This document shows positions 35,081-52,709 of a stretch of 60,717 nucleotides of DNA, in pieces (within the stretch, counting starts at the first letter, position 1; every line of letters begins with the position of its first letter). The notes beneath the pieces were generated by a model that was given only the letters and a program-made list of their open reading frames with translations, made no database searches and was not told the origin of the DNA. A program made the translations under genes and the position numbers. The DNA is from a virus. Its lineage: Duplodnaviria > Caudoviricetes. The DNA lies in the IMG/VR virus record IMGVR_UViG_3300036798_000105, positions 1 through 60,717 of that record, one strand, 5' to 3'.

Positions 35081-36060
35081 TATGCTGCCTTTCGCATATC
35101 GGCGTACGGATCTGCTCTCCGGTAATTGTTCCGTAGAACTGACTTGTATGAGTCGCTACCGCGTTCGTGAAGCGTACATGGAATCCAGAACGGACAGCGC
35201 GGGCAGTCCCTTGTGGATGTTTTGGTTATCGGAATGATTCCCTCGCGGACGGCATTCATTACTGCCACTTCATCGGCTATGCGCTCCAGCTGTGTCCTCT
35301 GCTCTTTTGCCGAACGTTCAATGACCGTACGGACGAATAGCGGCGGTGGTTGCTTCTTGGAGATGCTACCGTCCTTATTTGTGCGCAGGCCGTCTAGGTT
35401 TTGTGGACGGTCATCCAGCTTAGCCTTGCGAAGGAAATTGTAGATAATGCCTTCGATTGACTCATTTTGCTTCAGGATGCCTTGCGTCTTGAGGAGTTGT
35501 GATGCGACCGCCCAGTAGCTACCAGCCTGATCGTCAAGTTCAAGATAGGCGGTAGCGATCTGAGCGGCAGTCTTGTTCTCCAATAGGTATACCTTGCCGT
35601 CTTCGGCATTGCGGAGTACGCCGTCCCAGCGTGACGCGAAGTAAGCAAGTGGTTGTCCGTCACGCATGATGCGCACGCGGAAAGGCTGCTCGACTGAGAT
35701 TATGTCCCATTGCGTATCGCGGCCGTAGTAGTTGGCGTACTCCTCAAGCATGGCTATGCCTAGCTCGGTAGCATCCATCCACACCGGCTCATCGAATGTC
35801 TCGTCAAGGTATGTCCGGGCGAACGCGATTTCATCGCCAGCCCACTTCTCCCAGGTATCGGCAGGATGCGGGCCACGGCGCTTGCCATTGAGGTACCATT
35901 GCGCTAGTGCTTCGTGAATTCCGATTCCGAACCACAAAGCATCCGCTTGCGGAGACCGCTGCCGGTAACCTTGGCGATACTCCCACCACCAGCGTTGCGG
36001 ACAGCGCTTGAATGCACTACGCTCTGAAGTGCGTAGTGTTGGAAGTGTCGCCGCTGTCAT
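35080..36060 (-). CDS. Cas4-like / PD-(D/E)XK exonuclease
   Basis: FKRCPQRW, D...ENKT, Q...YW, CPRCPF...C. Confidence 0.85.
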   Translation of the reverse strand: MTAATLPTLRTSERSAFKRCPQRWWWEYRQGYRQRSPQADALWFGIGIHEALAQWYLNGKRRGPHPADTWEKWAGDEIAFARTYLDETFDEPVWMDATELGIAMLEEYANYYGRDTQWDIISVEQPFRVRIMRDGQPLAYFASRWDGVLRNAEDGKVYLLENKTAAQIATAYLELDDQAGSYWAVASQLLKTQGILKQNESIEGIIYNFLRKAKLDDRPQNLDGLRTNKDGSISKKQPPPLFVRTVIERSAKEQRTQLERIADEVAVMNAVREGIIPITKTSTRDCPRCPFWIPCTLHERGSDSYKSVLRNNYRRADPYADMRKAA

Positions 36061-36207: not shown

Positions 36208-36645
36208 CTAGTAGGGGGCTTCCGCTGCCGCCTTGGAGGCGTTGGACGGACGCCCGCGACCACGCTTGACGGGCGCGGCGGCCGGAGCCGGGGTTGCCGG
36301 AGCGGTAGCGGCGGCCTTGCGGGGACGACCACGGGCAGGCCTGGCCGGCTCGGGCTCAGGCTCTGGTTCCGGCGCGGCGCGCTCGGACTTGCGGGCTTCG
36401 CGCTGAGAGATGTTGAATTCGGACTTCTGGAAGTGCGGGTACAGGGCCGAGCCGAGCGACAGGAGCTTGTCCACGGGGACATCCTCCAGGGCCGCGACGT
36501 TGTCTTCGAACCAGACAACGTAGTCGGACATCGTCGGGGACAGATCCTTGTCGAGGTACCGCTGGAAGTCGACCTGGCCATTCTCTTCGGGGTCAGGCTC
36601 TGGCGGCGCGACTACGGCCGCCCTGCGCCCTCGTGCTGCTGGCAT
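36208..36645 (-). CDS. 145-aa protein of the M..[FY]..W.E...FQ.S..N family (in-frame extension to 36939 possible)
   Basis: SD AGGAGG before ATG 36645; core aligns with 48769-49224 and 52038-52412. Confidence 0.75.
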   Translation of the reverse strand: MPAARGRRAAVVAPPEPDPEENGQVDFQRYLDKDLSPTMSDYVVWFEDNVAALEDVPVDKLLSLGSALYPHFQKSEFNISQREARKSERAAPEPEPEPEPARPARGRPRKAAATAPATPAPAAAPVKRGRGRPSNASKAAAEAPY

Positions 36646-36690
36646 AGGGGAATCCCTCCTGGGGTGAGGCATTTTCGCGTTACCCTTCCG

Positions 36691-36719
36691 AGTATACTCC
36701 GGCCCGGAGCGGATGGCTA
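36691..36719 (-). promoter_or_regulatory. Predicted promoter TAGCCA-N17-TATACT
   Basis: Same architecture as the other phage promoters. Confidence 0.65.
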
Positions 36720-37097
36720 CCCCCTTTCGCGATGAACTTTCGGTATGATCCGAAAGCTCGAAACGGCCGGGCGCGATGTAACGGAGGGTAATGAAGCCAT
36801 CCGAATTCGGAACCTTCCATTCCTTTGATGGTTTCCTGACATCGTCGGCCGTATACTTCATGACGAACCGCGCCATGTCGATAGTAAAGCCGTAGCCGGA
36901 AACGAGCGCTTCCATGATGACGGCAATATTCCGGGCCACGGGATTTCCTTATTTGCCTAGAAAGTTATTCACGATGGGCGGATATATTACCGCCAGAAGC
37001 AGGAACATCAGGCATAGCATGATGATGGTCATTGTCATGCCCATAGCGATGTTCCCGACGATGCGCATCCTCTTGTAGTTGGGCTCCACTGTATCTC

Positions 37098-37415
37098 CTA
37101 GTGCGGGTAGTATGGGCGTTCTTCTCCGAACCAGATCTGCTCGTCCGCTTCGTGACATAGGTACAGATGAATAAGATTGCGTACCTGCTGGCGCGGTTCG
37201 TCATATGTGTTGATGTCTACGGAGACGTTGAGAGGCTTCAGGTTGTCATCCTCATCATTGTCATTATCGGCACACCACACTTCCAGGCATAGCCTACGGC
37301 TCGCGCGGTCTACTGATACCTCACCGCGGTTGTCGCCCCTCTTGACGCCGTAGGACCACTGGAATATTTCCAGCTCGTGTTCGATTTCGGTCATGATCCG
37401 GTCGATGCTACTCAT
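37098..37415 (-). CDS. Hypothetical protein (HEADE motif)
   Basis: Coupled ORF. Confidence 0.55.
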   Translation of the reverse strand: MSSIDRIMTEIEHELEIFQWSYGVKRGDNRGEVSVDRASRRLCLEVWCADNDNDEDDNLKPLNVSVDINTYDEPRQQVRNLIHLYLCHEADEQIWFGEERPYYPH

Positions 37416-37593
37416 GGAGCTTCCAGTTGCTTTCCTTCGGCCTGCGTACTATTGAGTCGGCGTAGCGCTCGCATTCATCATACTCTTCGCCGGTTAGGGG
37501 ATCTGGCCATGCTTTCCCGAACTCACGGACCTTGTCGGCAAATGCCTCGTACCACTTGTTGTCTAGGTCGAATTCCGTCGGTTCGGTCGGCAT
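37408..37593 (-). CDS. Hypothetical protein
   Basis: TAATG coupling to the helicase. Confidence 0.55.
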   Translation of the reverse strand: MPTEPTEFDLDNKWYEAFADKVREFGKAWPDPLTGEEYDECERYADSIVRRPKESNWKLHE

Positions 37594-39539
37594 TATGCGT
37601 CCTTCCCTGCGATAGCCATCTCGCTGAGGCGACGGGGGCTAGCTGTCGATACCGCTGCGCGCTGCTCTTCGTTCAGGAGCGCGATCCATTCGTCGATGCT
37701 GTCTACCGATACGAGCCGGTAGATGGTGACCTGGTGCATGCGGCTCACCCGGTGAATACGGGAGAACAACTGCTCATCCCGGTCGGAGATCCATGGCATG
37801 TCGAGGACAACCATCTCATCGGCCGCGTCCAGGGTGATCGACTCACCGCCCGCATCACGGTTCAGGACGACTACGCGCAAGTTGTCGTTCGTGTCCTGGA
37901 ACCGCGCGACGAGATCCACACGGTCCCTGTCGCTAGTCGCGCCGGTAAGTGTCAGAACCTCCAGGCCCGTCTCCTTGCGAATCTGTTCGGCCGCTAGCCC
38001 GACGATGCTGCTGAAGCTGCTCGCGACCACAATCTTGGCTTCGGTATCCTCGCGTTCCTGGATGAAGTCGATAAGCCAGTCGATCTTGTTCGACGGCATG
38101 CGCGGGATTAGGTGTTGCCTGGTGTCACCTAGGACGTGGGCGGCTGTTGCGAATTGTCGGAGTCTGGTGATTTCAGCAAGGACTCCCGTCGCAGTGATCC
38201 GTGCGCCATCCTGGAGAGTTGCTTCGGCAAGCTTCTCCATATCCCAGTACGCTCGGGACTGGACTTGCTCCATGTCAAGCTGAACGTAACACTGACTGTT
38301 CGGGTCTTCTGGGTCGATGGGAGTTCCTGCGTAGTTGATTGGCGGGAGATCTGGTGCCGCATCTTTCTTCTCTCTCTTGATGTAGTGTGGGCGAAGCATC
38401 CGGTCCCATGTGTCCGGGTCGCGCGGTTCTAGGACCTTGCCGCCGTTCCCGACAATCTTGCCGTACCGGCCATCCTCGACACCGAAGTGCTGTTCAGCCC
38501 AGCTCCAGTAGCTGCTGAACTTCTTATCATCTAGCCAGTTGAGAGTTCCCCATCCTTTCTCAAGCTTGCTACGGAACGGAGTGCCTGACAAGGCTATGGC
38601 TAGCCCGCCGGGCCTGAGTCGCTTGCGTATCTTCATCGCGCCGAACCGGGCCTGTGTAATACGCTTGCTCTGGATGTTAGCGGTGCTGGCTAGCAGGTTG
38701 TGGCTCTCATCGAAGATGATCGCATCCCACGTTCGCTCCGTGAGGAACGGCCATTCAGGAGTCGCGTGGTACTCATGCTTGGGATGTCCGTACGGCGGAC
38801 GACTGTCCTCAAAGGCACATATGCCGCCCGGCCCGGACGGGCAGAATTCGCGGCGCTTCGCGCGGACCATCTCGATGTTTATGATCAACATCTTGCGAGT
38901 GCCGGGGATCTCTACGGAGTGATCTGCGAAGTCGGCCATAGCCTGCTCGCGTTCGGCTCGGCCACCCTGCGCAACGAACGTGGCGATTCCTGGCGCCCAG
39001 CGCATCGTCTCGCGCTCCCACACGGTACGTACCGCCGTACGCCGGCAAGCGACAAGGATCTCCTTGGCGTCATTCTCGATAACAGCGGCGAGTGCCTGAA
39101 GCGTCTTGCCAAGGCCGGGATCATCGCCAAGGATGACATTCTGACCGGCGAGGATGAAGGCGGTTCCCGCGATCTGGTATGAGCGATTACGCATCGCCCT
39201 CATCAGGTCCGGCGCTTCCGCCTCAACACGCGGGAAGCTGACCTTGTTGATCTTCTCCTCGCGGATATCCTCCAGCTGGTTTTCCTTGGCAACAGCCGCG
39301 CGAGCCCAGTCTGCGAGTGCCGGCAGGATCTCTAGATCTGAGCCGAATTCCTTGCGTAGTGCCCGACAGGTATCCATCGACAGCGGGTAGGACCATCCGA
39401 CGAATATGTTTGGCGTTACTGTCTTGTCCCAGTCCGCACGGGCACCTGGAACGTTCTTCGCTGCCCGAGGACCTTTGCCCCCGGCGTAATCAATCTTGGC
39501 AAGGACGCGCTTTCCGTCCGTCGTTACAACGGCCTTCAT
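37593..39539 (-). CDS. SNF2-type superfamily 2 helicase
   Basis: DDPGLGKT, DESH, LSGTP, GESITL, Q...RIHR. Confidence 0.92.
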   Translation of the reverse strand: MKAVVTTDGKRVLAKIDYAGGKGPRAAKNVPGARADWDKTVTPNIFVGWSYPLSMDTCRALRKEFGSDLEILPALADWARAAVAKENQLEDIREEKINKVSFPRVEAEAPDLMRAMRNRSYQIAGTAFILAGQNVILGDDPGLGKTLQALAAVIENDAKEILVACRRTAVRTVWERETMRWAPGIATFVAQGGRAEREQAMADFADHSVEIPGTRKMLIINIEMVRAKRREFCPSGPGGICAFEDSRPPYGHPKHEYHATPEWPFLTERTWDAIIFDESHNLLASTANIQSKRITQARFGAMKIRKRLRPGGLAIALSGTPFRSKLEKGWGTLNWLDDKKFSSYWSWAEQHFGVEDGRYGKIVGNGGKVLEPRDPDTWDRMLRPHYIKREKKDAAPDLPPINYAGTPIDPEDPNSQCYVQLDMEQVQSRAYWDMEKLAEATLQDGARITATGVLAEITRLRQFATAAHVLGDTRQHLIPRMPSNKIDWLIDFIQEREDTEAKIVVASSFSSIVGLAAEQIRKETGLEVLTLTGATSDRDRVDLVARFQDTNDNLRVVVLNRDAGGESITLDAADEMVVLDMPWISDRDEQLFSRIHRVSRMHQVTIYRLVSVDSIDEWIALLNEEQRAAVSTASPRRLSEMAIAGKDA

Positions 39540-39571
39540 TAAGGCCCCTTTCTCGCTCTCCCGGTAGCCTT

Positions 39572-39600
39572 ATCCTACCCTACCGGCCGCCGGAAAGCGA
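39572..39600 (-). promoter_or_regulatory. Predicted promoter TCGCTT-N17-TAGGAT
   Basis: Near-duplicate of 47814-47842; CA/TG-free. Confidence 0.6.
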
Positions 39601-39607
39601 ATTCTGT

Positions 39608-39862
39608 TTAGATGCCTAGTTTATTGCGTGTTTCGTGACCAGCTGGCCCTATGTACTTGAGTTCGCCCATCTTCATCTGGTAAGCTGGGTCCAACCATAG
39701 CCGCTTACCTTGGCCAGGAATGTACACGCGCATCGACCAGTAGTTTCCACGTCCGCGCTCCAGTACAACAAAACGGATTGTATGCGGAGTCCAGTCGGGC
39801 GGAAGCTTCCGGGTGCTCTCCCACACTTCCCCGACTTTCGGAAGTCCCGTGCGGGTAGGCAT
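39608..39862 (-). CDS. Hypothetical protein
   Basis: TAATG-coupled ORF. Confidence 0.55.
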   Translation of the reverse strand: MPTRTGLPKVGEVWESTRKLPPDWTPHTIRFVVLERGRGNYWSMRVYIPGQGKRLWLDPAYQMKMGELKYIGPAGHETRNKLGI

Positions 39863-40089
39863 TAGTAGTCGCCAGCTTCATGGTAACCGTGACTAGGCTC
39901 TTCAGGTGGTGAATTCTTACTCTCCTGCTTGTAATGCGTGTTGACGTTGTAGTTGCCCTGTTCGACTAGTTCTCGCGCGGTATTGAGGATCTCCAGGATG
40001 CCTTCTTTGCCCTTGACGGGGCCTCGAACGTCAATTATCATCTTGCCTATGTCGGACACCGTCACCAGCATCAAGATGCTTCTAGCCAT
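39862..40089 (-). CDS. Hypothetical protein
   Basis: Coupled ORF with SD GGAG. Confidence 0.55.
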   Translation of the reverse strand: MARSILMLVTVSDIGKMIIDVRGPVKGKEGILEILNTARELVEQGNYNVNTHYKQESKNSPPEEPSHGYHEAGDY

Positions 40090-40918
40090 TATTGTCTCCA
40101 GGTATTTCTAGGGATCGGATGTCGCCGCCGTGTATGGCCGAGGCAACTTTCCAGTTGGGGATGTAGTCGTTCAGTAGTTTCCGCCATGATACCCGTAGCG
40201 GCTTGTCTGGAGCATTCGTGTAGCTCGGCCATCTCTTGTGGATGATGTCTAGGCATTCCTTCTCGGCAGCGGTTCGTGCCTCTATGGTGCTGTACTTCGC
40301 GGCGAATCCTCCCGGGCTGTACCGCTTAGCTACCGACACCGCCTTGACGTCGCAGTGAGCGAGCCATGGAATTCCACGCTTGATACCTTGCCTGGCTAGT
40401 TCGGTATCCTCCCCGATCGTGTGAAGCTTAGTGTCGAAGTTCCCACAGTCGAGCGCTGTCTGGACGTTAAGTCCGAACACCTGAAACCCCCAGCCGCCAG
40501 GACACAGGATGGCACCATGGTTTCTGGAGATGGCTCCGCCGGTGAACATGTCATGGATGGATCGTGTAGCGCCGATGCCAAGTACTCCTGGCTTCTCGGC
40601 TTCCTCAAGCAGGAGGCTCGCGTTTGAGTTGGAGTGAATGTGGATGTCGTCATCGCTCATGATGATCGAGATGAGTGCCGTTTTCTTGGCATGCTGAACA
40701 CAGAAGTTCCGGGCGTACCCGATGCCGCGCGCGGACAGAGGCAGCGGGAGGATGTAGACATTCTTGCCCCAATTCTCCTCACGCTTGAGCTTGCCGTGGA
40801 TGCTGAATTCCATGCGGTCAACCACGAGCCGTACCTGAATGCCCTGGTCGATCCAGTTGGGTACGGTCTTGCGGAGCATGTCGATGCGGCTCATGGTTGG
40901 GATGTAAACTACATCCAT
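40082..40918 (-). CDS. GT-A fold glycosyltransferase (resembles phage DNA-modifying TAGT/GREB1-like enzymes)
   Basis: VYIPT..R, GIGYARNF, SDDDI (DxD), GED.EL, PGG motifs. Confidence 0.75.
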   Translation of the reverse strand: MDVVYIPTMSRIDMLRKTVPNWIDQGIQVRLVVDRMEFSIHGKLKREENWGKNVYILPLPLSARGIGYARNFCVQHAKKTALISIIMSDDDIHIHSNSNASLLLEEAEKPGVLGIGATRSIHDMFTGGAISRNHGAILCPGGWGFQVFGLNVQTALDCGNFDTKLHTIGEDTELARQGIKRGIPWLAHCDVKAVSVAKRYSPGGFAAKYSTIEARTAAEKECLDIIHKRWPSYTNAPDKPLRVSWRKLLNDYIPNWKVASAIHGGDIRSLEIPGDNNG

Positions 40919-41511
40919 TATTGTCCTCTATTCCTACGGCACTCAGGACCCGCACTAAGCGAACGGCTGAGCTCGTCAGTCAGGTGACGGTTACAGTGTC
41001 GGCAGTTCCCGATTTCCTGGCCGTACCTGAAGCCGGTCACTTCGACACCTTCGGCCAGGATCGCTTCCAGGACCGTGATCTTCATGAGCCTGCTGACGTT
41101 CAGGTCCGGCTTCCCGCCGACGATGCGCTTGACGAACGTACGCCCGGCGTATGCGCCCTGCTCCGGGCGATCTACCCGCCAGAAGTCGAAGTCATTGTTG
41201 CCGGTGAAGCTCTTGGTGGCGTAGTGCCCGCGTGGTATCGTGGAGTAGTCAGCGTCCTGGAACTTGGGGGCTTCCATCTTTGCTCGTTCCTCAATAGGGC
41301 ACTGTCCGTCGAGGTGGGAGACAACCCACTTGCCGTCACGGTTCTTGTCGACACGACCCGCCATCGACGGGACTAGGACGCCGCATCTCACGCACGCGTT
41401 CTCGTATTTGTTCTGGCGGTGATTTGACAGGTTCGATTCCGTCACGCCATAGCAGGCCCGCACGTCCGCGACGGTTTCGTGCTCATGACCCTTACCACAC
41501 TTGATACTCAT
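40918..41511 (-). CDS. Multi-zinc-ribbon protein (C-terminal CxxC.R.LTD..S...GP.C)
   Basis: Cys motifs; coupled to the glycosyltransferase. Confidence 0.65.
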   Translation of the reverse strand: MSIKCGKGHEHETVADVRACYGVTESNLSNHRQNKYENACVRCGVLVPSMAGRVDKNRDGKWVVSHLDGQCPIEERAKMEAPKFQDADYSTIPRGHYATKSFTGNNDFDFWRVDRPEQGAYAGRTFVKRIVGGKPDLNVSRLMKITVLEAILAEGVEVTGFRYGQEIGNCRHCNRHLTDELSRSLSAGPECRRNRGQ

Positions 41512-41555
41512 CGTATCTCATCTCTTCTCCGGCCGGTTCCTTACCGGCTAACCCG

Positions 41556-41584
41556 AGTATACCCTACGGAAGGCTTTCCGTCGA
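41556..41584 (-). promoter_or_regulatory. Predicted promoter TCGACG-N17-TATACT
   Basis: In a CA/TG-free island. Confidence 0.6.
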
Positions 41585-43412
41585 ATCGGCAGGAATCTCT
41601 TTCAGCTCACGTTCCATGAAGCCGTATACGTAATTGTTCAGGATCTGATTGTCTAGCCTGACCCAGACATCCCAGGTCCATTGTGGTTCATGTAGGTGTA
41701 CGACTGTGCCTGTTTTGCCGCTAAACAGCGAGCCGCTAGGTTCCTGCCTTACCCTGACTCGTGTCCCCGTCTTCACCACTCCTCACTGACCTTTACCCAG
41801 AAGTGTCGTGACCCTCCGGTCTTCAGCTTGACGGAGATGCGCACAGCATTCGGCGTGATCTCCTTTGCCTCGATTGATTCGACTTCCTCGGGCTGTGACT
41901 TCAGAGGCGGCGCTACGCCCGGCGGGAGCAGGTGATGCTGTACCGACGTGCGTATCATGTCACGTACCGGATCGTTCAGTTTGCCGGACATTGTTCTCCT
42001 AGAGGTATGGGTGAATAAGCGTGACGAACTGACGAGTCGTCATGATGACGATAACGAATACGGATTCAGGATTAAGGATGCAAGCAATCTCCATACAGAT
42101 GATAGTCTTCACTGACTGAAGTATTAGTTCCGGCATTGTGCCTCCAATAGGCCGGGCAGCCGGCCCCTGTTCGACTGCCCGGCAAAGGATTAATTCCAGT
42201 TGGACGTTTCTACATCAGGATCGGTTTTGTCAATTAGCCTCTTCTCACTCCACAGGTCTACGACGTTCGTCGCCGGGACTTCCTTGACCGTGTCTGCCTT
42301 ATCCCACAGATCTCCCCATAGGTCATTAGGCTTAGCGTCCGGCATCGAGTGTGGGTTACGCAGGTAGCTGTTCACCGCGTCACGCATGCCGTTGATCTGC
42401 CTCGCATGAGTCCGCGCGGGAATCTGCGTGCCGGTCACGGAGGTGAACGCCCAGTGTTGTAGGCGGCCGTGGACGATGACCTTCCCTACGGGGAGGTTGT
42501 CGTACGAACTGGAGATCGTGTAGATGGTCTTGCGCTTGTTGGGCGTCTTCACCTCGGTCACGATGTATGGCATTTACTTCTCCTCTGCTACCGGGATGGT
42601 GATAGAGAACTCTTCACTGGCCGCGTAATAGCTGGCCAGCTCATCAGCCGTGAGGTAGATGGTGCCGACGATGTCGACACGATACATCCCGTCGTGAATA
42701 CCCATGTCGCAGAACCTAGGCATGCCATTCGATATTCGAATCTTCATAGTGTCCTCGTGACGTTGTCCGGCGCGGTATACTTGGTCTTGTGAATTCCCGA
42801 ATGCTGACTACTAACCTTCAGCCACACGGACATCCCCGGGTGTTTGGTGTCCATATGTCCTTTCAGGATGGTAGGTGCGTGGCGTGGTGAGCTGACGCTT
42901 CGGGTGATGAGTGGATCGTCATGGAGCGGGCATTCAAACTTCCAGATGCCCTCACCATCATGTGTTGCCGTTAGGATCGGCATTGTTGTTCGCACCGTAA
43001 CCCTCCTCTACAATACGTAGCTTGACCGGCGAGTACTTCATGCCCTCATCCGCGCAGCCGCCACACATGGGGTATGGCTGATCGATGCATGCTGAGCATG
43101 CCCACTTAACGCGGACATGCCCCCTTTCACATTCCGCCTCGTACATGGTCTCGGTCGGGTTGCCGCACGGGATCATCAGCGGCCTATGTATTACCTCGCA
43201 CGTGCGCGTCACGGTAGCCTCTTGGATCTAGTCAGCGCCTCACGACGCCCTTCGAACTCTTTGCGTATCTTCTCGGTTGCCGCGAAGAATTCATCCATGT
43301 TGACTTGCCCGCGCAGAGCCTGCTCTAGCGCGTACTCGGCGGTGTCGCGACTCAGTAGTATACGCTCAAGCTTCCTGAACTTCGCAACAGCATCTTCAGT
43401 ACGCCAGTCCAT
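41564..43412 (-). other. Run of small leftward hypothetical genes (41564-41779, 41773-41991, 42190-42573, 42744-42995, 42958-43212, 43209-43412)
   Basis: Contiguous coupled ORFs with SD sites; no recognisable families. Confidence 0.6.
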
Positions 43413-43629
43413 CGATGCCTTCCCGGAGGGTTACCCTCCTTTTTCAGATCAGGCCAAGGAGGGTAACCCTCCCTTTTCTGGCACCCGCTTTTCGGGTACT
43501 CTCCCCCGATTATAGCGCGTCCGGCGCGGGTAGGGAAGACGTACGCGCGATTACCGGCCGTACGTACGGCTACCCCTACCCGCGCGGCGAGCGGACGCTA
43601 GCGCGCGCCGAGCGAAGCCTATGATGTTG

Positions 43630-44592
43630 TTACCCTAGCTCCTTGCGTTGTCCCGATGATGCCTGCGGGTTGAGGCTCGCCGTGTTGGCGTGCGCTACCC
43701 CCTTCTTGTATGCGGTCGCATTGAATGTAGATTTCTTGCCGGCCGTCTGCTTGGCGCTCGGGAAGTCGTCGGCTAGCGCGTCGGCTATGTTCTGGCTCTT
43801 GTCCGCTAGCACCAGTTCCGCGCCTGTCCCCCGCTGCCCGGCGATCTCACGGAGCCGCTGATTGATGCGGGCCAGGTAGCCGAGCGCCGCATTGCGCCGG
43901 TAGGTTTCTGATCCGGCGGGTGAAATTCTCAAAAAATTTTCTGCGCGGGAGGTCAGCTCGGCCTCGTAGGCTCGCTTGATGCGTGCGATCGACCGCGCCC
44001 AGCTCGCCCGCTCGCCCGTCTCGCGGTTCACGTACATATTCTGTGCCTCGCCCGGCTGCGATTCGACCTTGTACCAGCCGTACGCTTTGGCGATGTCGAA
44101 CCAGTTGAGTCCTGCGTTGTGGAGCTCATACGCATTCTCACCCAAGGTCTTATTGGGGTCTGGCTTTGGGAAGATCGCTCCAAGCATGTGGAGGTGGATG
44201 GTGGTGAACAGCATCTCAAAGTACCGGAGATCCGACTCATAGCCGTACACCCAGACGTACTCCTGGATGCCGGCCATCTTGTTGCCTGAGTGCTCCATCC
44301 AGATGGATGAACACTTACAGAACTTCGACACGATGTTGACCAGCGTCGCCAGCTCTGTGAGGAATGGGTTGCCTTCTTCGCCAAGATCAATCTTGACGCG
44401 AGTCGGCGTGAGGCCGACAGGTGCGTCCCTGGCTGTCTGCCATTCCTCGACAGCGTAACGCTGCATCATCACATCAGCTCGCTCGCGGCACGCATTAGCC
44501 TCGAACATGCTGTTCTGGTCCTTGGATGCCTCCAGGGACTCGGCTTTGCTGATCAGGGCGCGGATCTTGTCGAGAATGCGGTCGAGTTCCAT
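43630..44592 (-). CDS. DUF2786-like protein
   Basis: ILDKIRALI.KAES...EA.A....A...M.RY N-terminus; SD GGAG/AGG before ATG 44592. Confidence 0.7.
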   Translation of the reverse strand: MELDRILDKIRALISKAESLEASKDQNSMFEANACRERADVMMQRYAVEEWQTARDAPVGLTPTRVKIDLGEEGNPFLTELATLVNIVSKFCKCSSIWMEHSGNKMAGIQEYVWVYGYESDLRYFEMLFTTIHLHMLGAIFPKPDPNKTLGENAYELHNAGLNWFDIAKAYGWYKVESQPGEAQNMYVNRETGERASWARSIARIKRAYEAELTSRAENFLRISPAGSETYRRNAALGYLARINQRLREIAGQRGTGAELVLADKSQNIADALADDFPSAKQTAGKKSTFNATAYKKGVAHANTASLNPQASSGQRKELG

Positions 44593-44596
44593 TTGC

Positions 44597-46739
44597 CTAC
44601 TCCGCGCTGAAGCCGAACTTGCGTGCGGTAATCTCTGCCGTCTCCCAGTTGATTGCCTGCCTCGCAAGCTCTTCCTGATCCTGTCGGGCTGGCGCGGGTA
44701 GTTGCGGCCGGTACGCCGAGATGTACTGTCCGTGTACTCCGTCCAGGACTTCACCTCCAACTTCGGTATGATAGGACAGGGCGTTGCCGTTCGCGATTGT
44801 CGGCGACACCCATTCGACCTCATTCATTGTAGACAACCATGACCCGTGCCGTATGTCCATGGTAGGCATAATCACTGGCTCCGGGTGGTTAACGAACTTG
44901 ACGAGTACGTAGAACATACTTCTCCTTCAGGTCCTAGAACGGACGCTAAGCCGATTTCCTAGCGGGTACGTATTACCCTACCGGAGTAGCCTAGCGTCCG
45001 TCTAGAGCCGGTTTTACGCCTCTGGCAGAGGCTAGCGGAAACGGGACGCGAGACGGGATTCTACCCCCGATTTGTTAAGGGTGAGGCGGCCCTCTTTGAT
45101 CGCGAGCGGGCCAGCGACTCCTTCTGTCCCCCAGGTAGTGCCCGCGCGGACCTGTCGGAAGTGGCCCAGGATGGAGTACGCATGCCCCTGTAGCTTGTAG
45201 AAGGCGTCGTGGTCGCCAGGCTTGAAGCTGCCCGACACCGTGATGATGCCATCGCGACCGCGCACGGTCAGCCCGTAGCTTTGGGCCTCCTTCCTGATCT
45301 CTTCGGCTCTGACGTCTAGTTCCGACATCGTATTTCCTTTCCTTCCCTACCGGCCGGATTCCCTACCGTCCGCACGGCGCGTAGCCGTAGCCTAGCGGAC
45401 GCGCTAAGCCGCGCGCGTACCCGGGTACCTAGGCGTTAGCGCGCGGCGTAGCGTCGATCCTACGGCCTGACAGGAGTCATTAGCAAACGGGGAACGAGAA
45501 CGTTGAAGGGTCGGTCGCATTGAAGCATTGCGCCGAGGCAGGTGGTGCCGGATTCGCGATCTTGTTGAGGGTGCTGACGGCATTCACGCCGACAATGATT
45601 CCGGCGATGATGCTGACGGCCATCACAAGTGCGATGAACACGACCGCATTACGAGTCTGCCGTGCGTACCTGTCCCCGGCTGATTCTACGGGGATGGTGG
45701 TGATTATGTCTGTCATGATGATCCTTTGTTAGATGTCGGCTAGGCCGCAGACAATCGCGATCCAGGAGTCGAGTTCAGAAACGGTGTTGATGTTGATCGT
45801 CTTCCCGGCACGCTTGCCGTAGCCTTGTGCCTTGCCGGTTATGAACCTGACTTGTGGACCCTGATTGCCTGGCTTCTTCTGTAGCCAGCCGACCGAGTAC
45901 AGGTTCTTGGCGAACAGGTTCTTGCCCTCAATGCTGAGGTAGTAGATCGTGCCGTTGTCGTACTCCTTGATCTCGATGGTTGCCGTGTGGTATCTGGCCT
46001 TCTGGTTGATGGCATTGGCGTATGCCTTCGCGATCTCAAAGGCGTTGCCCCTTACCCTGATGGGCATCAAGCCTCCTTGTTGAGTGGCCGGTTCTGAGCA
46101 CCGCGCGCGACCAGCCAGTCATTGAATGCCTCGTAGGTTGCGGCCTTGGTCCTGATGTCCGTGCCCATCGCCTCATTGGCTAGGACTCTCGCACTGCGGC
46201 CGCGCCGCTTGAGTCCCCTAGTTTCGAGCCATAGCGCACCGCGCACAGCCAGGAGCCTGACGAACTCGATGTTGTCTGCCCCGGTGATCACGATGGCCGG
46301 TGTAGGGTCTTGCGCTTCCATTTCAGCTCCTGGGTTCCCGTAGTTGTCGAGGTGGTCATCAAAGCCCTTCATCGTGTCCTGCCCCTGATAGCAGTTATGA
46401 TTAGCAGGATGATCATCACCGTGACAATCGTCAGGATCATGCCTGCTATATCCATTATTAGCGGGTAGTACGTCATCACTTCCCCTGGTTCAGGTGAGCC
46501 CAGAGCTGGGACTCGTAGCTGGCGATCCGGCGGTCATGGCTGATGATGGCAGCTCGCTTCGCGCGGACTTGGTTCACGCGGTGACGCCGCGCCGCGATTC
46601 GGAACGGCAGGCCTACTAGCCACACCGTCGTCAGGAATGCTCCCTTCAGGATGAGGAAGTGGATGTACAGGATGAACCCGATAAGTTTGAGCAAGAGCGG
46701 AATCGCCCTGGCCACGAAGTAGACTGTTAGGTAGATCAT
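44597..46739 (-). other. Run of small leftward genes (44597-44917, 45032-45328, 45480-45716, 45729-46070, 46067-46372, 46369-46455, 46476-46739), three with TM segments
   Basis: Coupled ORFs; hydrophobic segments read directly. Confidence 0.6.
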
Positions 46740-47767
46740 TACGACTCCTGCTTGATGACTGGCTTCATGACTGGCTTCGGGCGTACGCCGCTACGCTTCG
46801 CGCGGCTATTGGCTGTCGGTAGGATCAGGCTCGGCAGCTTCGGCTTCTCTTTCTTTGGCATTGGGATACTGGATCGCGTTCCTACATCTAGTGCCCGGAC
46901 GGTCGCGGTTTCGACCAGAGCCTGTTCGCCGGTTGGGACGCCATCGTCATCCTCGTAATCCTGGTACCATGAGCACGGCTCGATGTAGTAGCCGAATGGC
47001 TCAAACATCCTGCCGAACTTGTTTTTCTCGCAGACGATCGTAGCGCCGGGGAATCCGCGCCCGGCACCGCTGTCCGGCTGAACCTGGATGACGAAGTCGG
47101 CGGCATTGAACAGCCGTCCCGAGCCAGACATCTTTGAGCCGTTCCCGACTGGGTGAGCTACCGCGAGTACAACGCAGTCGAGTTCCCGCGAGAGCCACTT
47201 CATTCCCTGGATACTACGGTTCGCACTGGCCTCATTGGCGATCGACAAGCTCGGCGTAAAGTCAGAGAAGCTGTCGAGTATGACGAGCTGAAGGTCAGGG
47301 ATCTGGCGCAGCGCGTCGGCCGTAGCGCGTAGGGACTGGGTTGGCTCTCCCTGGTTCGCCAAGGGCAGGATGAACGGCTCGGTCATATAGAACAGATTGT
47401 CGTCCGTATACGGGGGAAGCTCGTCAAGCCACATCTTCGCACCCTCCATCTCACCGCCTCTCGCTTCAGCGATCTGCGCGGCGATGGCTACCCGGTCATT
47501 CTGCTCCCTGGCTAGCCGCGCCTGCTTCCGTACGCCCGCGTCATACAGGCCTTCACCCAGGCAGATCGCTACACTGCCTTGAGCTACCCGACGGCCAAAG
47601 AACTCGGTGCCGTTCGTAATGGCTAGGGCTAGCTCGCCATTCGTGACCAGCGACTTCCCGACGCGCGACGGACCCCAGATAAAGCCGACACCTACCAGTG
47701 GGATCATTCCCTCGACCAGGAAGTCCGGTGGGGACGTATCCAGGTCTTCCGCATTCACCAGCGTCAT
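46739..47767 (-). CDS. RecA-fold AAA helicase-like ATPase
   Basis: FLVEGMIP, GPSRVGKS, LVILDS, VAH, GSG....AD, KNK. Confidence 0.8.
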   Translation of the reverse strand: MTLVNAEDLDTSPPDFLVEGMIPLVGVGFIWGPSRVGKSLVTNGELALAITNGTEFFGRRVAQGSVAICLGEGLYDAGVRKQARLAREQNDRVAIAAQIAEARGGEMEGAKMWLDELPPYTDDNLFYMTEPFILPLANQGEPTQSLRATADALRQIPDLQLVILDSFSDFTPSLSIANEASANRSIQGMKWLSRELDCVVLAVAHPVGNGSKMSGSGRLFNAADFVIQVQPDSGAGRGFPGATIVCEKNKFGRMFEPFGYYIEPCSWYQDYEDDDGVPTGEQALVETATVRALDVGTRSSIPMPKKEKPKLPSLILPTANSRAKRSGVRPKPVMKPVIKQES

Positions 47768-47813
47768 TCTTCCCGCCCTTTCCTACGGCCGCTCGCTAGC
47801 GGCCTACTCCGTA

Positions 47814-47842
47814 AGTCTACCCTACCGGCCGCGCGGAAGCGA
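47814..47842 (-). promoter_or_regulatory. Predicted promoter TCGCTT-N17-TAGACT
   Basis: In CA/TG-free island 47767-47846. Confidence 0.6.
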
Positions 47843-47898
47843 ATCTTGTTTAATGTGTTGAAGCCCAGCCACACCCCGCATGGCTGGGCCTCAATTCG

Positions 47899-48393
47899 TC
47901 AGTCTGGCGGGTCCATGATGTCCCACCAGGATGGCGGCGGATCGTCAGTCCTGGGGCCATTCCAATGGCCGTCAGTCATGTCTTCAAGTTCCGCTTCGGC
48001 GCGGAAGCGCTCCTCGCGGGTCAGCGTCTTGTCGAGCGCTATGCGCTTCAGGTTCTGGACGTACTCGGAATCTGACGTCGGTGGCCCGGTCACATCTTCG
48101 AATGGCTCCTGCTCCAGCGTGATGCCGATCTCGCCGCCATTCTGCTCGTGGTAGTCGTCCAGGATTGAGACGAATGGGATGAAGTCGTCATCGACATCCA
48201 CGAAGACGTCATTGAAGAGCAGTGTCCGGCCAGCTTCGGCACTGGGATCGACCGTCAGCTTGAAGTGGTCGGGACTGTGACTGGTATGTTCAGTCGTATC
48301 CCTGACGCGCGTGATCATGTACTGGTTGTCCGCCACCTGAGTGACGTAGATCTTCTCGGTGAGTGCCCACTCACGGAAGTTATCTGTCGACAC
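47899..48393 (-). CDS. Acidic hypothetical protein
   Basis: SD AGGAGG before GTG. Confidence 0.6.
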   Translation of the reverse strand: MSTDNFREWALTEKIYVTQVADNQYMITRVRDTTEHTSHSPDHFKLTVDPSAEAGRTLLFNDVFVDVDDDFIPFVSILDDYHEQNGGEIGITLEQEPFEDVTGPPTSDSEYVQNLKRIALDKTLTREERFRAEAELEDMTDGHWNGPRTDDPPPSWWDIMDPPD

Positions 48394-48401
48394 TTGTCCT
48401 C

Positions 48402-48686
48402 CTAGGACTCGTCGCGGTTGATTGGGGCCGGAGGGACATCCAGGGACATCTCCTCCATGGTGTTGCCGTCATCGACCGGGGACATCGACTCGGCGCAGTC
48501 CTGCGTCAGGATGGCATCGGCCAGCGAGTGGAGAATGGCGGACACGGTCTCACGGTTAATTCCGTGCCCTAGAGCGATCCGCGCGGCCACGGTTGAGTTG
48601 TACTCGAAGAGGTTGAGCGCAAAGCTATCACGCTCACGCTTCCACTGCTCTTGGAGCTTGTCGCTAGTTTCCTTGTCGATTGGCAT
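48402..48686 (-). CDS. Hypothetical protein
   Basis: SD GAGG before ATG 48686. Confidence 0.55.
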   Translation of the reverse strand: MPIDKETSDKLQEQWKRERDSFALNLFEYNSTVAARIALGHGINRETVSAILHSLADAILTQDCAESMSPVDDGNTMEEMSLDVPPAPINRDES

Positions 48687-48768
48687 TTCCTCGCCTTTCT
48701 CTCCGGCCGCGCGTTCGCGACCTATCGCTAGGGTACCCGAACGCGCGCCGGAAAGCGAATCGGACAAA

Positions 48769-49224
48769 CTAGGGGTTCAGGTCTGAGGACTGGAATGCAC
48801 CGTATGCCTTGGAGGCAATCATCACCAGCCGCGCGTCGACACCCTTGGGGAACAGATCTGCGTACTCGCGCTCGATCCACTGCGTGAAGCGGACCATGGC
48901 CGGCGTGATCTCCTTGGTGGCGTAGCTGCGGTGTCCGGTGACGCGCGGCTCCTTGGCCGGCTTTGGCTCTGGCTTCTTCTGCTTTGCCAGTTCCCGCGCC
49001 AGCGCTTCCGACTGCTCCTTGATGGCCGCCGCCTTCGCGGCCCTGGTCTGGGCAGCCTTCTGAGCAGGCGTCAGGATCTCAGGCGCTGGCGCCTTTGCGA
49101 CCGGCTTGGTTGTCGTCACCAGCTCGGGACCGGAACGGCCGGACGGTCCCTGGTTTGACTCGGCATTCTTGCTCGGACGCCGGTTGCGACGAGTCGGAAT
49201 CTTCTCGGCTTGGGTGGTAGACAT
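48769..49224 (-). CDS. 151-aa Lys/Ala-rich protein, paralog of 52038-52412
   Basis: AMVRFTQWIERE...VDARLVMIASKAYGAFQSSDLN; SD AGAAAGG. Confidence 0.8.
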   Translation of the reverse strand: MSTTQAEKIPTRRNRRPSKNAESNQGPSGRSGPELVTTTKPVAKAPAPEILTPAQKAAQTRAAKAAAIKEQSEALARELAKQKKPEPKPAKEPRVTGHRSYATKEITPAMVRFTQWIEREYADLFPKGVDARLVMIASKAYGAFQSSDLNP

Positions 49225-49266
49225 TAGTCGCCTTTCTGGGTGATTCTCGGTTTCGCTTACGTACGT

Positions 49267-49295
49267 AGCTTACCCGCTACGCGGGGTTGCGTCTA
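49267..49295 (-). promoter_or_regulatory. Predicted promoter TAGACG-N17-TAAGCT
   Basis: Shares GCGGGTA.GCT(T)ACGTACGTAAG with the promoter at 51921-51943. Confidence 0.6.
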
Positions 49296-51112
49296 GTCCT
49301 CATTTTCCGGGCGCAGGCGCACGAAGTTGATGTTGACCTCATACAGGCCGGTGACGCTCTGGATGAAGTACCAGCCATCCTCCAGGAAATTCCTGTCGGG
49401 TGCGTTGGGTGACGGGGCACCAATCGTGTCATACACGGTGCCGTCGATGTCGAAGATGTCCTCGACACTGAACTTGACCTTGGTGCCTATCGGGTATGGA
49501 TGTTGTATGGTCATACTGCTCCTAATGCGGCATATGGGTGATGGTCTTGCCGACTTCCCCGTTGAGCTGGCCCATCTGGATCGCATCCACGAACTCGGTG
49601 TACTCGCCGTACAGATCTGGTTGTGGCACGCTGTTGATCAGCATCGTGCCTGTGCCGTCATCGACACCCAGGACGAACGCGCCTGGCCCATGAATCCGCG
49701 CGACGAGTACGGTGCTGTCGCTGATTACGGTGAGCTTGACTGCCTCGTACAGCGCCCAGTTGATGTCTGCCTCGTTCATCTTCGCCTCTCAGGACATCTT
49801 GACGACTAGGGTACACGGCTGGCTGACGTAGCTGACATCCTCGAACCAGCCATCCATGCCGTTTGTTGACGCCCAGCTTGTCGCCGAGTGAAGGTTCGCG
49901 AACCGAATCCGCGCGGACCCGACATCCTTGGTCAGCAGCTCACCGTGGTACGCCCTGAGGATGACCTGGGAAAGCTTCTGGTCCATCGTCAGCTCGAATT
50001 CGTCAGACATTCGCTTCTCCGTTCCTCCGGCCGCGCGTTCGCGGCCTTACGTCCGTAGCCTACCCGATCGCGCGCGAATCTCCTAATCGTGGTCAGGGTG
50101 GATTGGCCTGCGGACGATGACGTCAAAGTGGTCAGGCCATGAGAATGTCCGGTCACGGGCAACCTGGAAGCTGATCTCCTTTCCTGGCATTGGAGTGCCG
50201 CTCTTGCTGCCTTTGCGTGGCCTGACGACCCAACCATGTTTGCTCTCGATGGTGCGCACGGCACTGTTGACGATCAGGCCGCGCATGTTCATCTGCTTTG
50301 GCACCTTGATGACAAAGTCGCCAACGCGCAGATCCTGGATTGCGATGGTTTCCTCCGGGCCGAAATGGATTGTCGGGATTGGATCGTAGCTGCCTGGTGT
50401 GGGTGCTGATTCCCGCATGTTTCTCCCTAGAATGGTGGTGTGTTCTCGCTGGCGAGGATGGTGATGAAGCGCTCGACATTACACAGGTGATTCACGGCGT
50501 TGACGGCGAACTTGAAGTCTTTGGTCCGGCAGGATCTTGGCTGGCTCACCCAGATGTCGTCAAGGGCGAGGTACACGATATCGCCAATGTAGTTGGCCAT
50601 GTCGTGAGCACCACCACGGTAGATCTCATAGCGAGTGGCATCTGTATGGCGGCCAGGCTTGATCTTCACGGCGATGTAGTTCACGGGCAATGATGCCTTG
50701 AGGACACTGAAGTTGCTGACGCCGAAACCTCTGATAGACATGTTGTCCTTTCGTGGAAGTGGGAAGTGGTAGTGGTAGGATCTCCTCAATGGACCCTCCT
50801 TGCAGCGGAGGGTTACCCTCCTTACACCACTGACTGTGAAGTGGTCAGCTCAAGGCCATAGCCATTCTTGTCAGTCCAGTCGAACACGTAGTTCAGTCGT
50901 GCGGTACGATCGTGGAGTCGTACCCACTTGCCGTAGAACTTCTGCTTGTACTCATCGCGGTCGGCCGCGTCGTTGAAGATGACGAAGATGGTGGGCATGC
51001 CGTGAGCGTCAATCCACTTCCGGCAGAGGTTGTAGTTGACGTTGACGATGCTGCCTACGACGGCCGCGAAGTCGATGACTTCTGGGGTTTTCGTTGGTCC
51101 TGTGACGTACAT
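49293..51112 (-). other. Run of small leftward early genes (49293-49514, 49522-49779, 49789-50010, 50083-50418, 50427-50741, 50822-51112)
   Basis: ORFs with SD sites, separated by CA/TG-free promoter islands. Confidence 0.6.
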
Positions 51113-51384
51113 TTCGTGTCTCTCTTTCCTCTACGCTCCGGCGTTCCGGCGCTACGTACGGAGTCTATACGACGGAATCGGCGATAGCGAATCGCTTGTT
51201 TTCGCTGGTCAACACATTTTGGTGGTGTCGGTGGCTGGCTGGCTGGCCGGGACAACATACACACACATTTCGCGGGAATTTTTCAAAATCATGTGCGCGG
51301 GATGAACGCCCATCGGCTGGGGTCGACCCCACTGGGGTCAATTGAGGTCGAATGTAGTCGACTACATTTTTTAGGCCCTGGTTG

Positions 51385-51500
51385 AACTCAAAAATTATTT
51401 CTGACATTTTAGTCAAACTCGAAAATTTTTCCTGACATTTTAGGCAAACTCCAAACTTATTTTCGACACTATAATCAAACTCAAAAATTATTTTGACGCC
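51385..51500. repeat. AT-rich 31-bp tandem repeat (about 3.7 copies)
   Basis: AACTC starts at 51385, 51416, 51447 and 51478; unit is about AACTCAAAAATTATTTCTGACATTTTAGTCA. Confidence 0.85.
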
Positions 51501-51902
51501 GCTAGGCGACGGGACACAATTTTTCAATCTACTGTAGTCGACTACCTCAGACGCCCATCGGTCGTACCCCAATGTTTTCGCCTCCTCCCGTTTGTAGTCG
51601 ACTACCTTTTCCCTACGCCGGTAGAACGCGATCCGGCGCGCCGGAAATTCCCGGAAAATCCGGCGGATTTTCGGAATATTCCGCTCGCCGCGCGAAGCGG
51701 AGGAGCGCTCCGAATTTCGTTCGGAAGCGGAGGAGCGCTCCGAAATTCCCGATTTTCCGCGCGGATTTTCGGGAATTTTCTCCGGGGATTTTCCGTTCGC
51801 GCGCGCGCCGCGCGGTAAGTAGGAGTCGCGCGTAAGCGGAGGCCGCCTCCGAAATTCCCGGAAAAAAGAGATCTACGTCTCGTCGGAAAACCGCCTAGAA
51901 AT

Positions 51903-51931
51903 TTTCTTTTTCGCGATCCGGCGGGTACGCT
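51903..51931 (+). promoter_or_regulatory. Predicted promoter TTTCTT-N17-TACGCT for the CA/TG-free gene
   Basis: GGG-TAnnnT architecture shared with the other islands. Confidence 0.5.
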
Positions 51932-52037
51932 TACGTACGTAAGGCCGGAACGAAAGAACCGGCCGAACCTCCGGCCGAACGCGCCGGAGTAGCGCGGAGC
52001 TAGCTCCGCTTTCTAACTAAAGAAAAAGGCGATTAAA

Positions 52038-52412
52038 ATCGACGCTAACGTTATTCCCGCCGCCGTAATTCCCGCCGCCGCCGCCGTAAAGGTCGCGTCG
52101 CCGGAAAAGACCGCGCCGGTTAAGACGGTAACTCGGAAGCCTAGCGCGAAGCGGCCTACGGCCGCCGAAATCGAGCTAGCGGCTCTTAAGGAGAAGCTAG
52201 CGGCGACGGAAGCGGAGCTAGCCGCTAGCGCGGCGCGTAAGCCTAGCGGGTATAAGCTCGCTAGCGTAGCTCCGCGCGCGATGACGGAATTCGCGACCTG
52301 GATTGAGCGCGAGTTCCCGGAGTTCGGAAAGGTCGACGCGCGTCTCGTTACGGTCGCGAGTAAGGCCTACCGCTATTTCCAATCGTCGGACCTTAATTCG
52401 TATTCGGGTTAA
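52038..52412 (+). CDS. Unannotated 124-aa protein with probable ATC start
   Basis: Open frame after TAA 52014; SD AAAGG 8 nt before ATC; C-terminus AMTEFATWIERE...VDARLVTVASKAYRYFQSSDLN matches 48769-49224. Confidence 0.85.
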   Translation: MDANVIPAAVIPAAAAVKVASPEKTAPVKTVTRKPSAKRPTAAEIELAALKEKLAATEAELAASAARKPSGYKLASVAPRAMTEFATWIEREFPEFGKVDARLVTVASKAYRYFQSSDLNSYSG

Positions 52413-52432
52413 TTCCTCTAGAATTCGAATTT

Positions 52433-52460
52433 CCGCCCGGAGTAATTCCGGGCGGTTATT
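52433..52460 (+). terminator. Hairpin terminator-like element
   Basis: CCGCCCGGA-GTAAT-TCCGGGCGG followed by TTATT. Confidence 0.6.
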
Positions 52461-52508
52461 CGGACTCTAGGAACCAAATAAATTCCCATTCAATCATAAG
52501 GATTTCCA

Positions 52509-52709
52509 ATGAATGATTCAGTCATGTTCCAGTCACTTTCAGGAATATTTCACCGCGTTGCTGTCGAGGACATCCAGGGCGCGATCTGCCATGACGATGA
52601 CTCGATGGTAGTCGTCTACACTGCCGGCGACTGTGACGTGTTCCGCGCGGTCAGCTGTGTGCCTGCCTACCGCGCAGAGCTTGAGCTGATTGCCCTGCGC
52701 TCAGCGTAG
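52509..52709 (+). CDS. Hypothetical protein
   Basis: SD TAAGGA before ATG. Confidence 0.55.
   Translation: MNDSVMFQSLSGIFHRVAVEDIQGAICHDDDSMVVVYTAGDCDVFRAVSCVPAYRAELELIALRSA

Follow-up and report, generated by a model that had tools for sequence, protein, structure and literature searches.

What three small, mutually related proteins do in a single phage, and why one of them should be encoded on DNA nearly devoid of CA/TG dinucleotides, is the question raised by the locus described here. The stretch analysed (hereafter the window) is a complete IMG/VR virus record (IMGVR_UViG_3300036798_000105; 60,717 bp, linear, with an estimated completeness of ~94%), and its three paralogs are labelled c1 (52038-52412, + strand), c2 (48769-49224, - strand) and c3 (36208-36939, - strand). 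The reading that we favour, and to which we would give an even chance of being right, proposes that all three share one undescribed core of ~56 amino acids (aa) and act as modular, dimeric architectural or adaptor proteins in association with DNA, with a conserved member in a recombination/replication module and, in addition, an early duplicate pair.

Homology and gene limits of the paralogs

The relationship among all three copies, first proposed in an initial annotation of this DNA, is real. With c2 as query, BLASTP recovers c1 at E 5e-15 (26/42 residues identical) and c3 at E 5e-11, and c1 aligns to residues 39-150 of c2 by tblastn. The annotation had named the third copy as the one on which the family would stand or fall in a profile alignment. 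When the c1/c2 family (20 sequences, with c3 left out) is compared with the c3 family (32 sequences), hhalign returns a significant similarity of 97.7% probability and E 2.2e-12 over 56 columns. Further, a profile of the core searched against the six frames of the window finds exactly three copies (E 7e-27, 7e-24 and 1e-20).

c2 encodes a 151-aa protein from an ATG start. The N-terminus is basic and disordered, residues 53-81 are modelled as a long helix, and the core is encoded at 48772-48942; the CA/TG content of the gene is ordinary. c1 and c2 lie on opposite strands, as had been described, and the basic arms attributed to the paralogs are likewise borne out: alanine and proline make up 27/66, 29/94 and 31/61 residues of the arms and tail, and the isoelectric point (pI) is 10.6 for the c2 arm and 11.2 for the c3 tail. 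The limits first assigned to c3 (36208-36645) were too short. The gene extends from 36208 to 36939 and encodes 243 aa from a GTG start, so that a confidently folded N-terminal alpha/beta domain (residues 1-65) had been missed; this domain is followed by an RGRR linker, the core (36394-36579), a PEPEPEP spacer and a tail with the C-terminal tip AEAPY. The RGRP AT-hook-like motifs reported for c3 are present, two in number, as ARGRPRK and KRGRGRPS (~36313-36333 and 36241-36264, - strand).

The start of c1 is less conventional. Gene finding by canonical starts calls just a 43-aa open reading frame (ORF) from an internal Met at 52281; no ATG, GTG or TTG serves as the start of the gene, whose reading frame is open from 52014 and encodes the Ala/Pro/Lys arm upstream of the internal Met. 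Translation likely starts at the ATC at 52038, because several lines of comparison converge there. The Shine-Dalgarno-like AAAGGCGA (52025-52032, + strand) and the ATC are identical in the relative L004, as are all 30 bases around AAAGGCGATTAAAATC, and the L004 ortholog shares 72% identity with c1 right from its first residue. In L005, a more distant purged ortholog begins with a GTG at the equivalent place, and this is the single TG breaking its purge. The arm has diverged between the window and L004 by in-frame indels and with a ratio of nonsynonymous to synonymous divergence (pN/pS) of 0.51, against 0.13 for the core, and the tblastn alignment to c2 points the same way. It is possible that an ATT two codons upstream serves instead. 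From the ATC, c1 would be a 124-aa protein with an Ala/Pro/Lys arm that includes a helix, a C-terminal core (52236-52409) and a TAA stop.

An undescribed core domain and its predicted fold

The part common to the paralogs reads Y..K....(T/A)M..(F/Y)..W....., a variable loop, and (R/K)L(L/V)..(A/G)S..Y..FQ.S(D/E)(L/F)N, in which M, W, F, Q and S are invariant among 25 aligned cores. A profile of the core recovers 251 of 1.84 billion representative proteins at E<=1e-3, 101 of them at E<=1e-10; the best 150 of the 251 are 40-392 aa long, and the sources, as far as traced, are actinophage-like viruses. In a few representatives of just 40-44 aa, the first residue is the Met of the core, as in the 43-aa call in the window itself, which hints at more copies without a canonical start. 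None of the three paralogs scores above the cut-offs in Pfam, PHROGs, NCBIfam or PADLOC, the core profile has 0 matches among PDB sequences, tblastn of c2 and c3 against 50,697 GenBank phages gives no match, and searches of the ESM Atlas gave no usable match. Pfam searches of 28 longer relatives and 7 variant architectures return sub-threshold low-complexity rows only. These results define the core as an unannotated protein domain present in 1-3 copies per genome in actinophage-like viruses, where the source could be traced. Streptomyces phage Yara (MH019215, here L091/L092) carries it in gp64, gp78 and gp89, all annotated as hypothetical; hhalign places gp64 at 91.5% probability and E 8.6e-7, and gp78 and gp89 are recovered at E 4e-9 and E 2e-4. 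A 121-aa member also lies on a bacterial contig of a Microbacterium sp. metagenome-assembled genome (L059:5962-6327, + strand), immediately followed by genes for a serine recombinase and a tyrosine integrase. Since it adjoins these genes, the core domain apparently occurs in integrative elements as well.

AlphaFold2 models the core as all helical, a short helix followed by two longer ones, with per-residue confidence (pLDDT) of 91-97 in c2 and 93-96 in c3, and a fourth helix follows the core in c3. The arms of both proteins are mostly below pLDDT 50, the helix at residues 53-81 of c2 (pLDDT ~80) being the exception; the first 50 residues of c2 are disordered, as are the linkers and tail of c3, and the N-terminal domain of c3 is confidently modelled as two helices and three strands. 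Foldseek comparison of the c3 model with the PDB gives a best E of 0.33, and nothing in BFVD matches it at E<=0.001. The c2 model has one BFVD match at that threshold, an uncharacterised Arthrobacter phage protein (E 1.4e-4), with weaker rows to Gordonia phage proteins. No solved or predicted structure thus matches the full c2 or c3 model convincingly; the VIA-align rows obtained cover the long helix of c2 or the N-terminal domain of c3, so that the core itself is barely probed by them.

The core is predicted to pair as a symmetric homodimer. Modelled as two 57-aa chains, it reaches an interface score (ipSAE) of 0.63 (median of three runs), against 0.02 for the best of three controls, with partner pLDDT of at least 80 and runs that share at least 89% of their contacts. 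Of 30 proteins whose solved structures are pairs of identical chains, 20 pass the mark applied to this score, as does 1 of 23 with a solved single-chain structure, counts that calibrate the result only roughly, as the core was modelled from its own 25-row alignment. The modelled interface is symmetric and comprises W22, I23, R38-L39-V40, I42-A43-S44, Y47, F50 and S53, with A43 packed on A43, and includes the invariant W22, F50 and S53. Placement in such an interface would account for the conservation of the (A/G)S pair and of the aromatic residues in the core.

c3 in a Sak4, exonuclease and helicase module

c3 is the conserved family member, with a fixed place in a Sak4 / Cas4-exonuclease / SNF2 module. 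Among 43 viral loci fetched with the c3 family, 41 have a PD-(D/E)XK exonuclease gene at most ~1.2 kb downstream of c3, followed by a Sak4-like AAA_24 gene, and 37 have an SNF2 helicase upstream. In the window, all on the - strand, these correspond to a Cas4-like PD-(D/E)XK exonuclease recognised by Pfam and PHROG matches (35080-36060), a Sak4-like (AAA_24) annealing protein (33756-34679) and an SNF2 helicase (37593-39539), which is the first gene of the operon that contains c3. The same arrangement is seen in Yara, where gp64 occupies the position of c3 between helicase and Cas4 exonuclease. The domain is thus a fixed, so far nameless part of this recombination module.

Members of the c3 family follow a common design, consisting of an optional N-terminal domain, MP.ARGRR, an acidic stretch, the core, NI.RRE.R, PEPEPEP and RGR-rich basic tails with a final Y or F; RGR is invariant or nearly so in the 32 c3 relatives, and the tail that ends in AEAPY in c3 ends in EAPY, DAPF, AAPF, AAAY or GDDF in others. 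A tail of like design is found in the same module on orf269 (32824-33633, - strand; 269 aa), which has no match in Pfam, PHROG or further family searches. Its tail has acidic PE repeats, an RGR-rich stretch and the end SSDDPPF, a pattern of PE repeats, RGR and aromatic tip held in common with c3, and Yara gp59, at the same place, ends in DDEPPF. Aromatic tail tips of this kind are how single-stranded DNA-binding (SSB) proteins hold their partners. On the basis of its tail, orf269 is a putative SSB-like partner hub. Stimulation of Sak4 of phage HK620 by its cognate SSB has been reported (PMC5928155).

The initial annotation had placed each copy behind its own promoter. For c3 this does not hold, as the motif that precedes c1 and c2 (described below) is not found before it. 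The gene sits inside the SNF2 operon, directly behind a small ORF, with AAGGAA preceding its GTG, and the nearest word of the -10 type is GGGTAGGAT before the helicase gene (39572-39580, - strand). The small ORF itself (36949-37066, - strand) encodes one hydrophobic, membrane-like helix (..IAMGMTMTIIMLCLMFLLLAVIYPP..).

A CA/TG-free cassette around c1

The observation that only one copy is purged of CA/TG is correct: there are 4 such dinucleotides in the 375 nt of c1, compared with 57 in the 456 nt of c2 and 63 in the 732 nt of c3. The purge extends beyond the gene to an island of 881 bp (51594-52474) that comprises a hairpin and repeat region, the c1 promoter, a structured leader, the gene and its terminator. 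In all, the island holds 4 CA/TG against 112.6 expected and includes 689 uninterrupted bp that are free of them; the second-longest stretch of this kind in the window measures 175 bp. For three of the four, the codon concerned (Met, Trp or Gln) leaves no choice. The amino acid composition appears to follow, as c1 has one Met, one Trp, one Gln and neither His nor Cys, against three, one, eight and one (Met, Trp, Gln, His) in c2, and leucine is written CTA, CTT or CTC in 7/7 cases in c1 and CTG in 7/7 in c2. The leader is structured (z-score -2.9) and retains its hairpins in L004 although the sequence has changed, and the terminator hairpin inside the island (52418-52470, + strand) has 24-nt arms that are 83% complementary (-37.8 kcal/mol, z-score -6.3).

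The same purge surrounds c1 orthologs elsewhere, as a 684-bp run in L004 and runs of 554 and 219 bp in L005/L054, in each case with a normal c2 ~3 kb away. Since it has been kept despite synonymous divergence (pS) of ~0.45-0.5 between the window and L004, the purge of the cassette is evidently maintained by selection. c1 and c2, with the same promoter type and Shine-Dalgarno sequence, cores 62% identical, and opposite CA/TG content and codon choice, therefore form the natural control that the initial annotation took them to be, a clean internal one in which c1 alone is recoded. The cassette as a whole is evidently accessory and travels with c1, as the relative G044 (98% complete) has c2- and c3-type genes and neither c1 nor the island, and Yara carries three paralogs and no CA/TG-free island anywhere, its longest gap being 90 nt. 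Two metagenome contigs of ~1.1 kb (L055 and L056) carry a c1-type gene with a CA/TG density of ~7 per 100, against ~12 elsewhere, and may represent a partly purged version of the gene.

The DNA that flanks the island is repetitive. An apparent ORF at 51165-51572 is made of DNA repeats, among them a 31-bp unit present 3.7 times at 51385-51497; the palindrome GTAGTCGACTAC occurs at 51353, 51533 and 51593; and GCCCATCGG occurs seven times, always on the + strand and always flanking the island, where 1.08 copies would be expected and 0/100 shuffles reach seven. The same repeat and palindrome words recur in L004 and L005. Judged by this layout, the region 51113-51593 together with 52700-53200 looks like an origin or control region and not a gene.

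What the purge escapes may be a mark directed at CA/TG, an idea that we regard as a lead and not a finding. The passages of PMC12191111 on Pbunavirus describe a hypermodified thymine in the TG motif of phages F8 and 14-1, with about a quarter of the thymidines of F8 hypermodified and its DNA resistant to enzymes with TG-containing sites. In the window, a possible DNA-modification set lies on the - strand at 28954-32824 and 40082-41511 and comprises a TET-associated-glycosyltransferase-like gene (Pfam E 2e-9 over the first 93 residues), a ThyX-like protein of 323 aa, a FabG-like SDR, a HAD / polynucleotide-kinase-like protein, phrog_8720, a MazG-like pyrophosphatase and DUF6011. The glycosyltransferase-like gene was considered as a factor that might track the island and was rejected, as it is present in G044, which has no island.

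Shared promoter-like elements of c1 and c2

The promoter and Shine-Dalgarno sequences said to be common to c1 and c2 are both present, as GGGTA[A/C]GCT(T)ACGTACGTAAG and as AAAGGCGA(C/T)TA before the two starts. Before c1 (51923-51943, + strand), the -10-like GGGTACGCT overlaps a 14-bp palindrome, CTTACGTACGTAAG, which is perfect at this site; before c2 (49256-49275, - strand) the motif reads GGGTAAGCTACGTACGTAAG. However, it is not special to the paralogs, since a third copy, GGGTAGGCTACGGACGTAAG (50046-50065, - strand), precedes an unrelated 73-aa ORF (49789-50010). The form that covers all three, GGGTA[A/G/C]GCT(T)ACG[T/G]ACGTAAG, is expected 0.21 times, and 0/100 shuffles reach three. The actinobacterial -10 element has the form TANNNT, which the TA[A/G/C]GCT of the motif fits. 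In L004, the -10-like GGGTA.G.T is kept before both orthologs and the palindrome is not, so that the motif resembles a promoter of host type whose operator may change. GGGTANGNT, considered as a promoter word of general use, has 12 matches against 5.7 expected and 2/100 shuffles reach 12, which makes it weak alone. An Rfam scan of 48-53.5 kb gave two sub-threshold rows only.

The proposed staging of the paralogs, taken as copies of a DNA- or RNA polymerase-binding factor, finds no support. With a -10-like element and palindrome in common, c1 and c2 are probably produced at the same time and not in stages, and c3 is read with the helicase operon. In addition, nothing in the analysis points to RNA polymerase binding by the paralogs.

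A model for the three paralogs and its alternatives

The present data allow a model of how the family may work. This model proposes that the core, a short helix, a helix A (..M..F/Y..W..), a loop and a helix B (R/K-L-[LV]..[AG]-S..Y..FQ.S[DE][LF]N), pairs through helix B, with the conserved small A/G-S residues at the crossing, to give a four-helix dimer from which flexible basic arms would project and hold DNA. The arms differ in type, being Lys/Ala/Pro-rich with an amphipathic helix in c1 and c2 and carrying RGRP AT-hooks in c3. Within the recombination module, c3 probably tethers replication/recombination machinery to duplex DNA, possibly recruiting partners through its aromatic tail tip, which is built like the tail of the neighbouring SSB-like orf269. 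c1 and c2 would be a younger duplicate pair in the early region, expressed from the same host-type -10 element with its overlapping palindrome. c1 would further be part of an accessory promoter-to-terminator cassette from which selection keeps CA/TG out, a constraint paid for with the ATG start, Gln, His, Cys and any further Met. Basic residues on either side of RGRP make it a classic minor-groove motif, and actinobacterial DNA-binding proteins typically have Lys/Ala/Pro-rich tails. In view of the basic arms, the two RGRP motifs of c3, its place in the replication/recombination module and the predicted dimer, association with DNA is plausible. Of the elements of this model, the homology, the anatomy of the genes, the synteny and the conserved purge are shown by the sequence data; the fold and the dimer are predictions, and binding to DNA, recruitment of partners and the reason for the purge are inferred. 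However, several observations weigh against this model. The dimer is a matter of model confidence and not a measurement. The c1 arm is just mildly basic (9 K+R, 7 D+E) and the c3 core is acidic (pI 4.3), which makes it unlikely that the core itself contacts DNA. The Pfam AT_hook model (PF02178) reaches E 0.16 on c3, at 12.4 bits against a cut-off of 17.4, c1 and c2 carry no RGRP, and no DNA-binding fold or family was recognised for the paralogs in Pfam, PHROGs, NCBIfam, PADLOC or the PDB sequence profile search. Further, c1 is evidently dispensable for this phage type, as the nearly complete G044 has two copies and no island.

Some of these points would suit a family that does not touch DNA at all, in which the core is purely a protein-protein adaptor, the tails present the aromatic tip and RGR to replisome or host proteins, and c1 and c2, by binding a host protein, take part in early host takeover. 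The acidity of the c3 core, conservation on its hydrophobic face, the resemblance of the tail tip to the partner-binding tip of SSB proteins and to that of orf269, and the position of c1 and c2 among small early ORFs without known family are all consistent with such adaptors. However, this scenario would leave aside the RGRP motifs with their flanking basic residues, the Lys/Ala/Pro-rich tails and the fixed place of the family among DNA enzymes, and we consider it unlikely. An alternate scenario keeps the contact with DNA and narrows it to promoters: c1 and c2 may act as dimeric regulators of transcription whose binding site is the palindrome in their own promoters and in the promoter of ORF 49789-50010, thereby autoregulating and timing early genes. 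A symmetric dimer, as predicted, would suit a palindromic site, c1 and c2 are both directly behind the palindrome, and it overlaps the -10/start region of three early promoters (0.21 expected; 0/100 shuffles reach three). However, the palindrome of L004 is replaced (GTAGAGTTCTAC before c1, none before c2) despite a c1 core that is 89% identical, which argues that protein and site do not travel together. In addition, neither a helix-turn-helix nor another DNA-reading fold is recognised by Pfam or by fold searches of the c2 and c3 models, and c3 belongs to a recombination module and not to promoters. A regulatory role of this kind is thus quite improbable.

The purge invites a different explanation for c1, which may serve, as an accessory factor, in counter-defence or in the entry phase; its cassette would escape an activity directed at CA/TG (the phage's own mark or a host nuclease), and c2 would be the housekeeping copy. 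The island and c1 are present together in the window, L004 and L005/L054 and absent together from G044, the purge is kept although synonymous sites have diverged, and PMC12191111 describes a hypermodified thymine in a TG context for Pbunavirus F8 and 14-1. The window, moreover, has the TET-associated-glycosyltransferase-like gene with ThyX, SDR, HAD and MazG-like genes. However, the same glycosyltransferase-like gene is found in the island-less G044, PADLOC gives no match, and the c1 core differs little from that of c2, so that counter-defence appears a rather poor prospect. A more speculative combination, which we rank as more doubtful still, would make c1 a pioneer copy, the sole protein on a stretch that escapes the CA/TG-directed mark or nuclease and hence the first to be produced once the genome enters; as a homodimer, or paired with c2 or c3, it would then coat or organise phage DNA so that the remaining genome can begin transcription, replication or recombination. 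If true, one member of this pair of paralogs would owe its specialisation to its DNA text rather than to its protein sequence. The architectural or adaptor model with DNA association remains the reading that we prefer.

Genome setting and likely host

The gene layout of the window is siphovirus-like. The + strand up to ~23.7 kb encodes terminase, portal, capsid, tape measure and a ReqiPepy6-Gp37-like protein, and the - strand from 23.9 to 51.1 kb encodes replication and nucleotide-metabolism genes. Among the latter, DnaE-like polymerase III alpha is encoded in two parts, with the PHP domain in an ORF of its own (314 aa; 26812-27756, - strand) ~310 bp upstream of the 782-aa polymerase core (24151-26499, - strand). 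The Cas4-like exonuclease matches 273 GenBank phage records, by name nearly all actinobacteriophages and headed by Streptomyces phage Yara at 48% identity, and the host of the phage is thus likely actinobacterial, as judged from these relatives. The one sequencing run listed as containing DNA of the window is a DNA run of a soil metagenome, possibly the origin of the record itself; no RNA run is listed.

Comparison with known systems

The paralogs resemble nucleoid-associated proteins of the Lsr2 / H-NS type in their small size, modular build and flexible basic linker, in the AT-hook-like RGR of c3 and in a domain that is predicted to self-associate. Lsr2-type proteins occur in actinobacteria, Lsr2-like proteins of actinobacteriophages are the subject of PMC8612146, and the likely host range of the paralogs is also actinobacterial. 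Homology to Lsr2, suggested by eye from W-to-AY and R-to-AY spacing as in its C-terminal domain, was rejected: when the core alignment is compared with 23 Lsr2 proteins, hhalign aligns 1 column at a probability of 0.3%, and Pfam finds no Lsr2 match (PF11774) at E<=1 for c1, c2 or c3. In addition, the RGR of Lsr2 sits in the loop between two helices of its DNA-binding domain, whereas the loop between helices A and B lacks RGR in all 25 cores and RGRP is confined to the separate tails of c3. Proteins with AT-hooks (HMGA type, PF02178) resemble c3 in its two R-G-R-P cores flanked by K/R and its disordered Pro/Ala-rich tail. However, c3 scores below the Pfam cut-off (12.4 against 17.4 bits), c1 and c2 are without the motif, and the paralogs also have a folded core that is predicted to dimerise.

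With phage SSB proteins that carry a C-terminal tip, c3 shares its position in a Sak4/exonuclease module, a disordered tail (pLDDT <50) and an aromatic last residue, as does orf269 (DDPPF). However, no SSB family match was found for c3 in Pfam or the family searches, and its AlphaFold2 model has no OB fold or barrel, being helical with a small alpha/beta N-terminal domain. A further parallel is phage Yara, in which gp64, gp78 and gp89 provide the same core in three copies per genome, with gp64 at the place of c3. In Yara, by contrast, long Lys/Ala/Glu helices come after an N-terminal core, the tips are different, the tail of gp64 being acidic, and the genome lacks a CA/TG-free island. As genes of a cultured phage, gp64, gp78 and gp89 thus provide a tractable model for the family.

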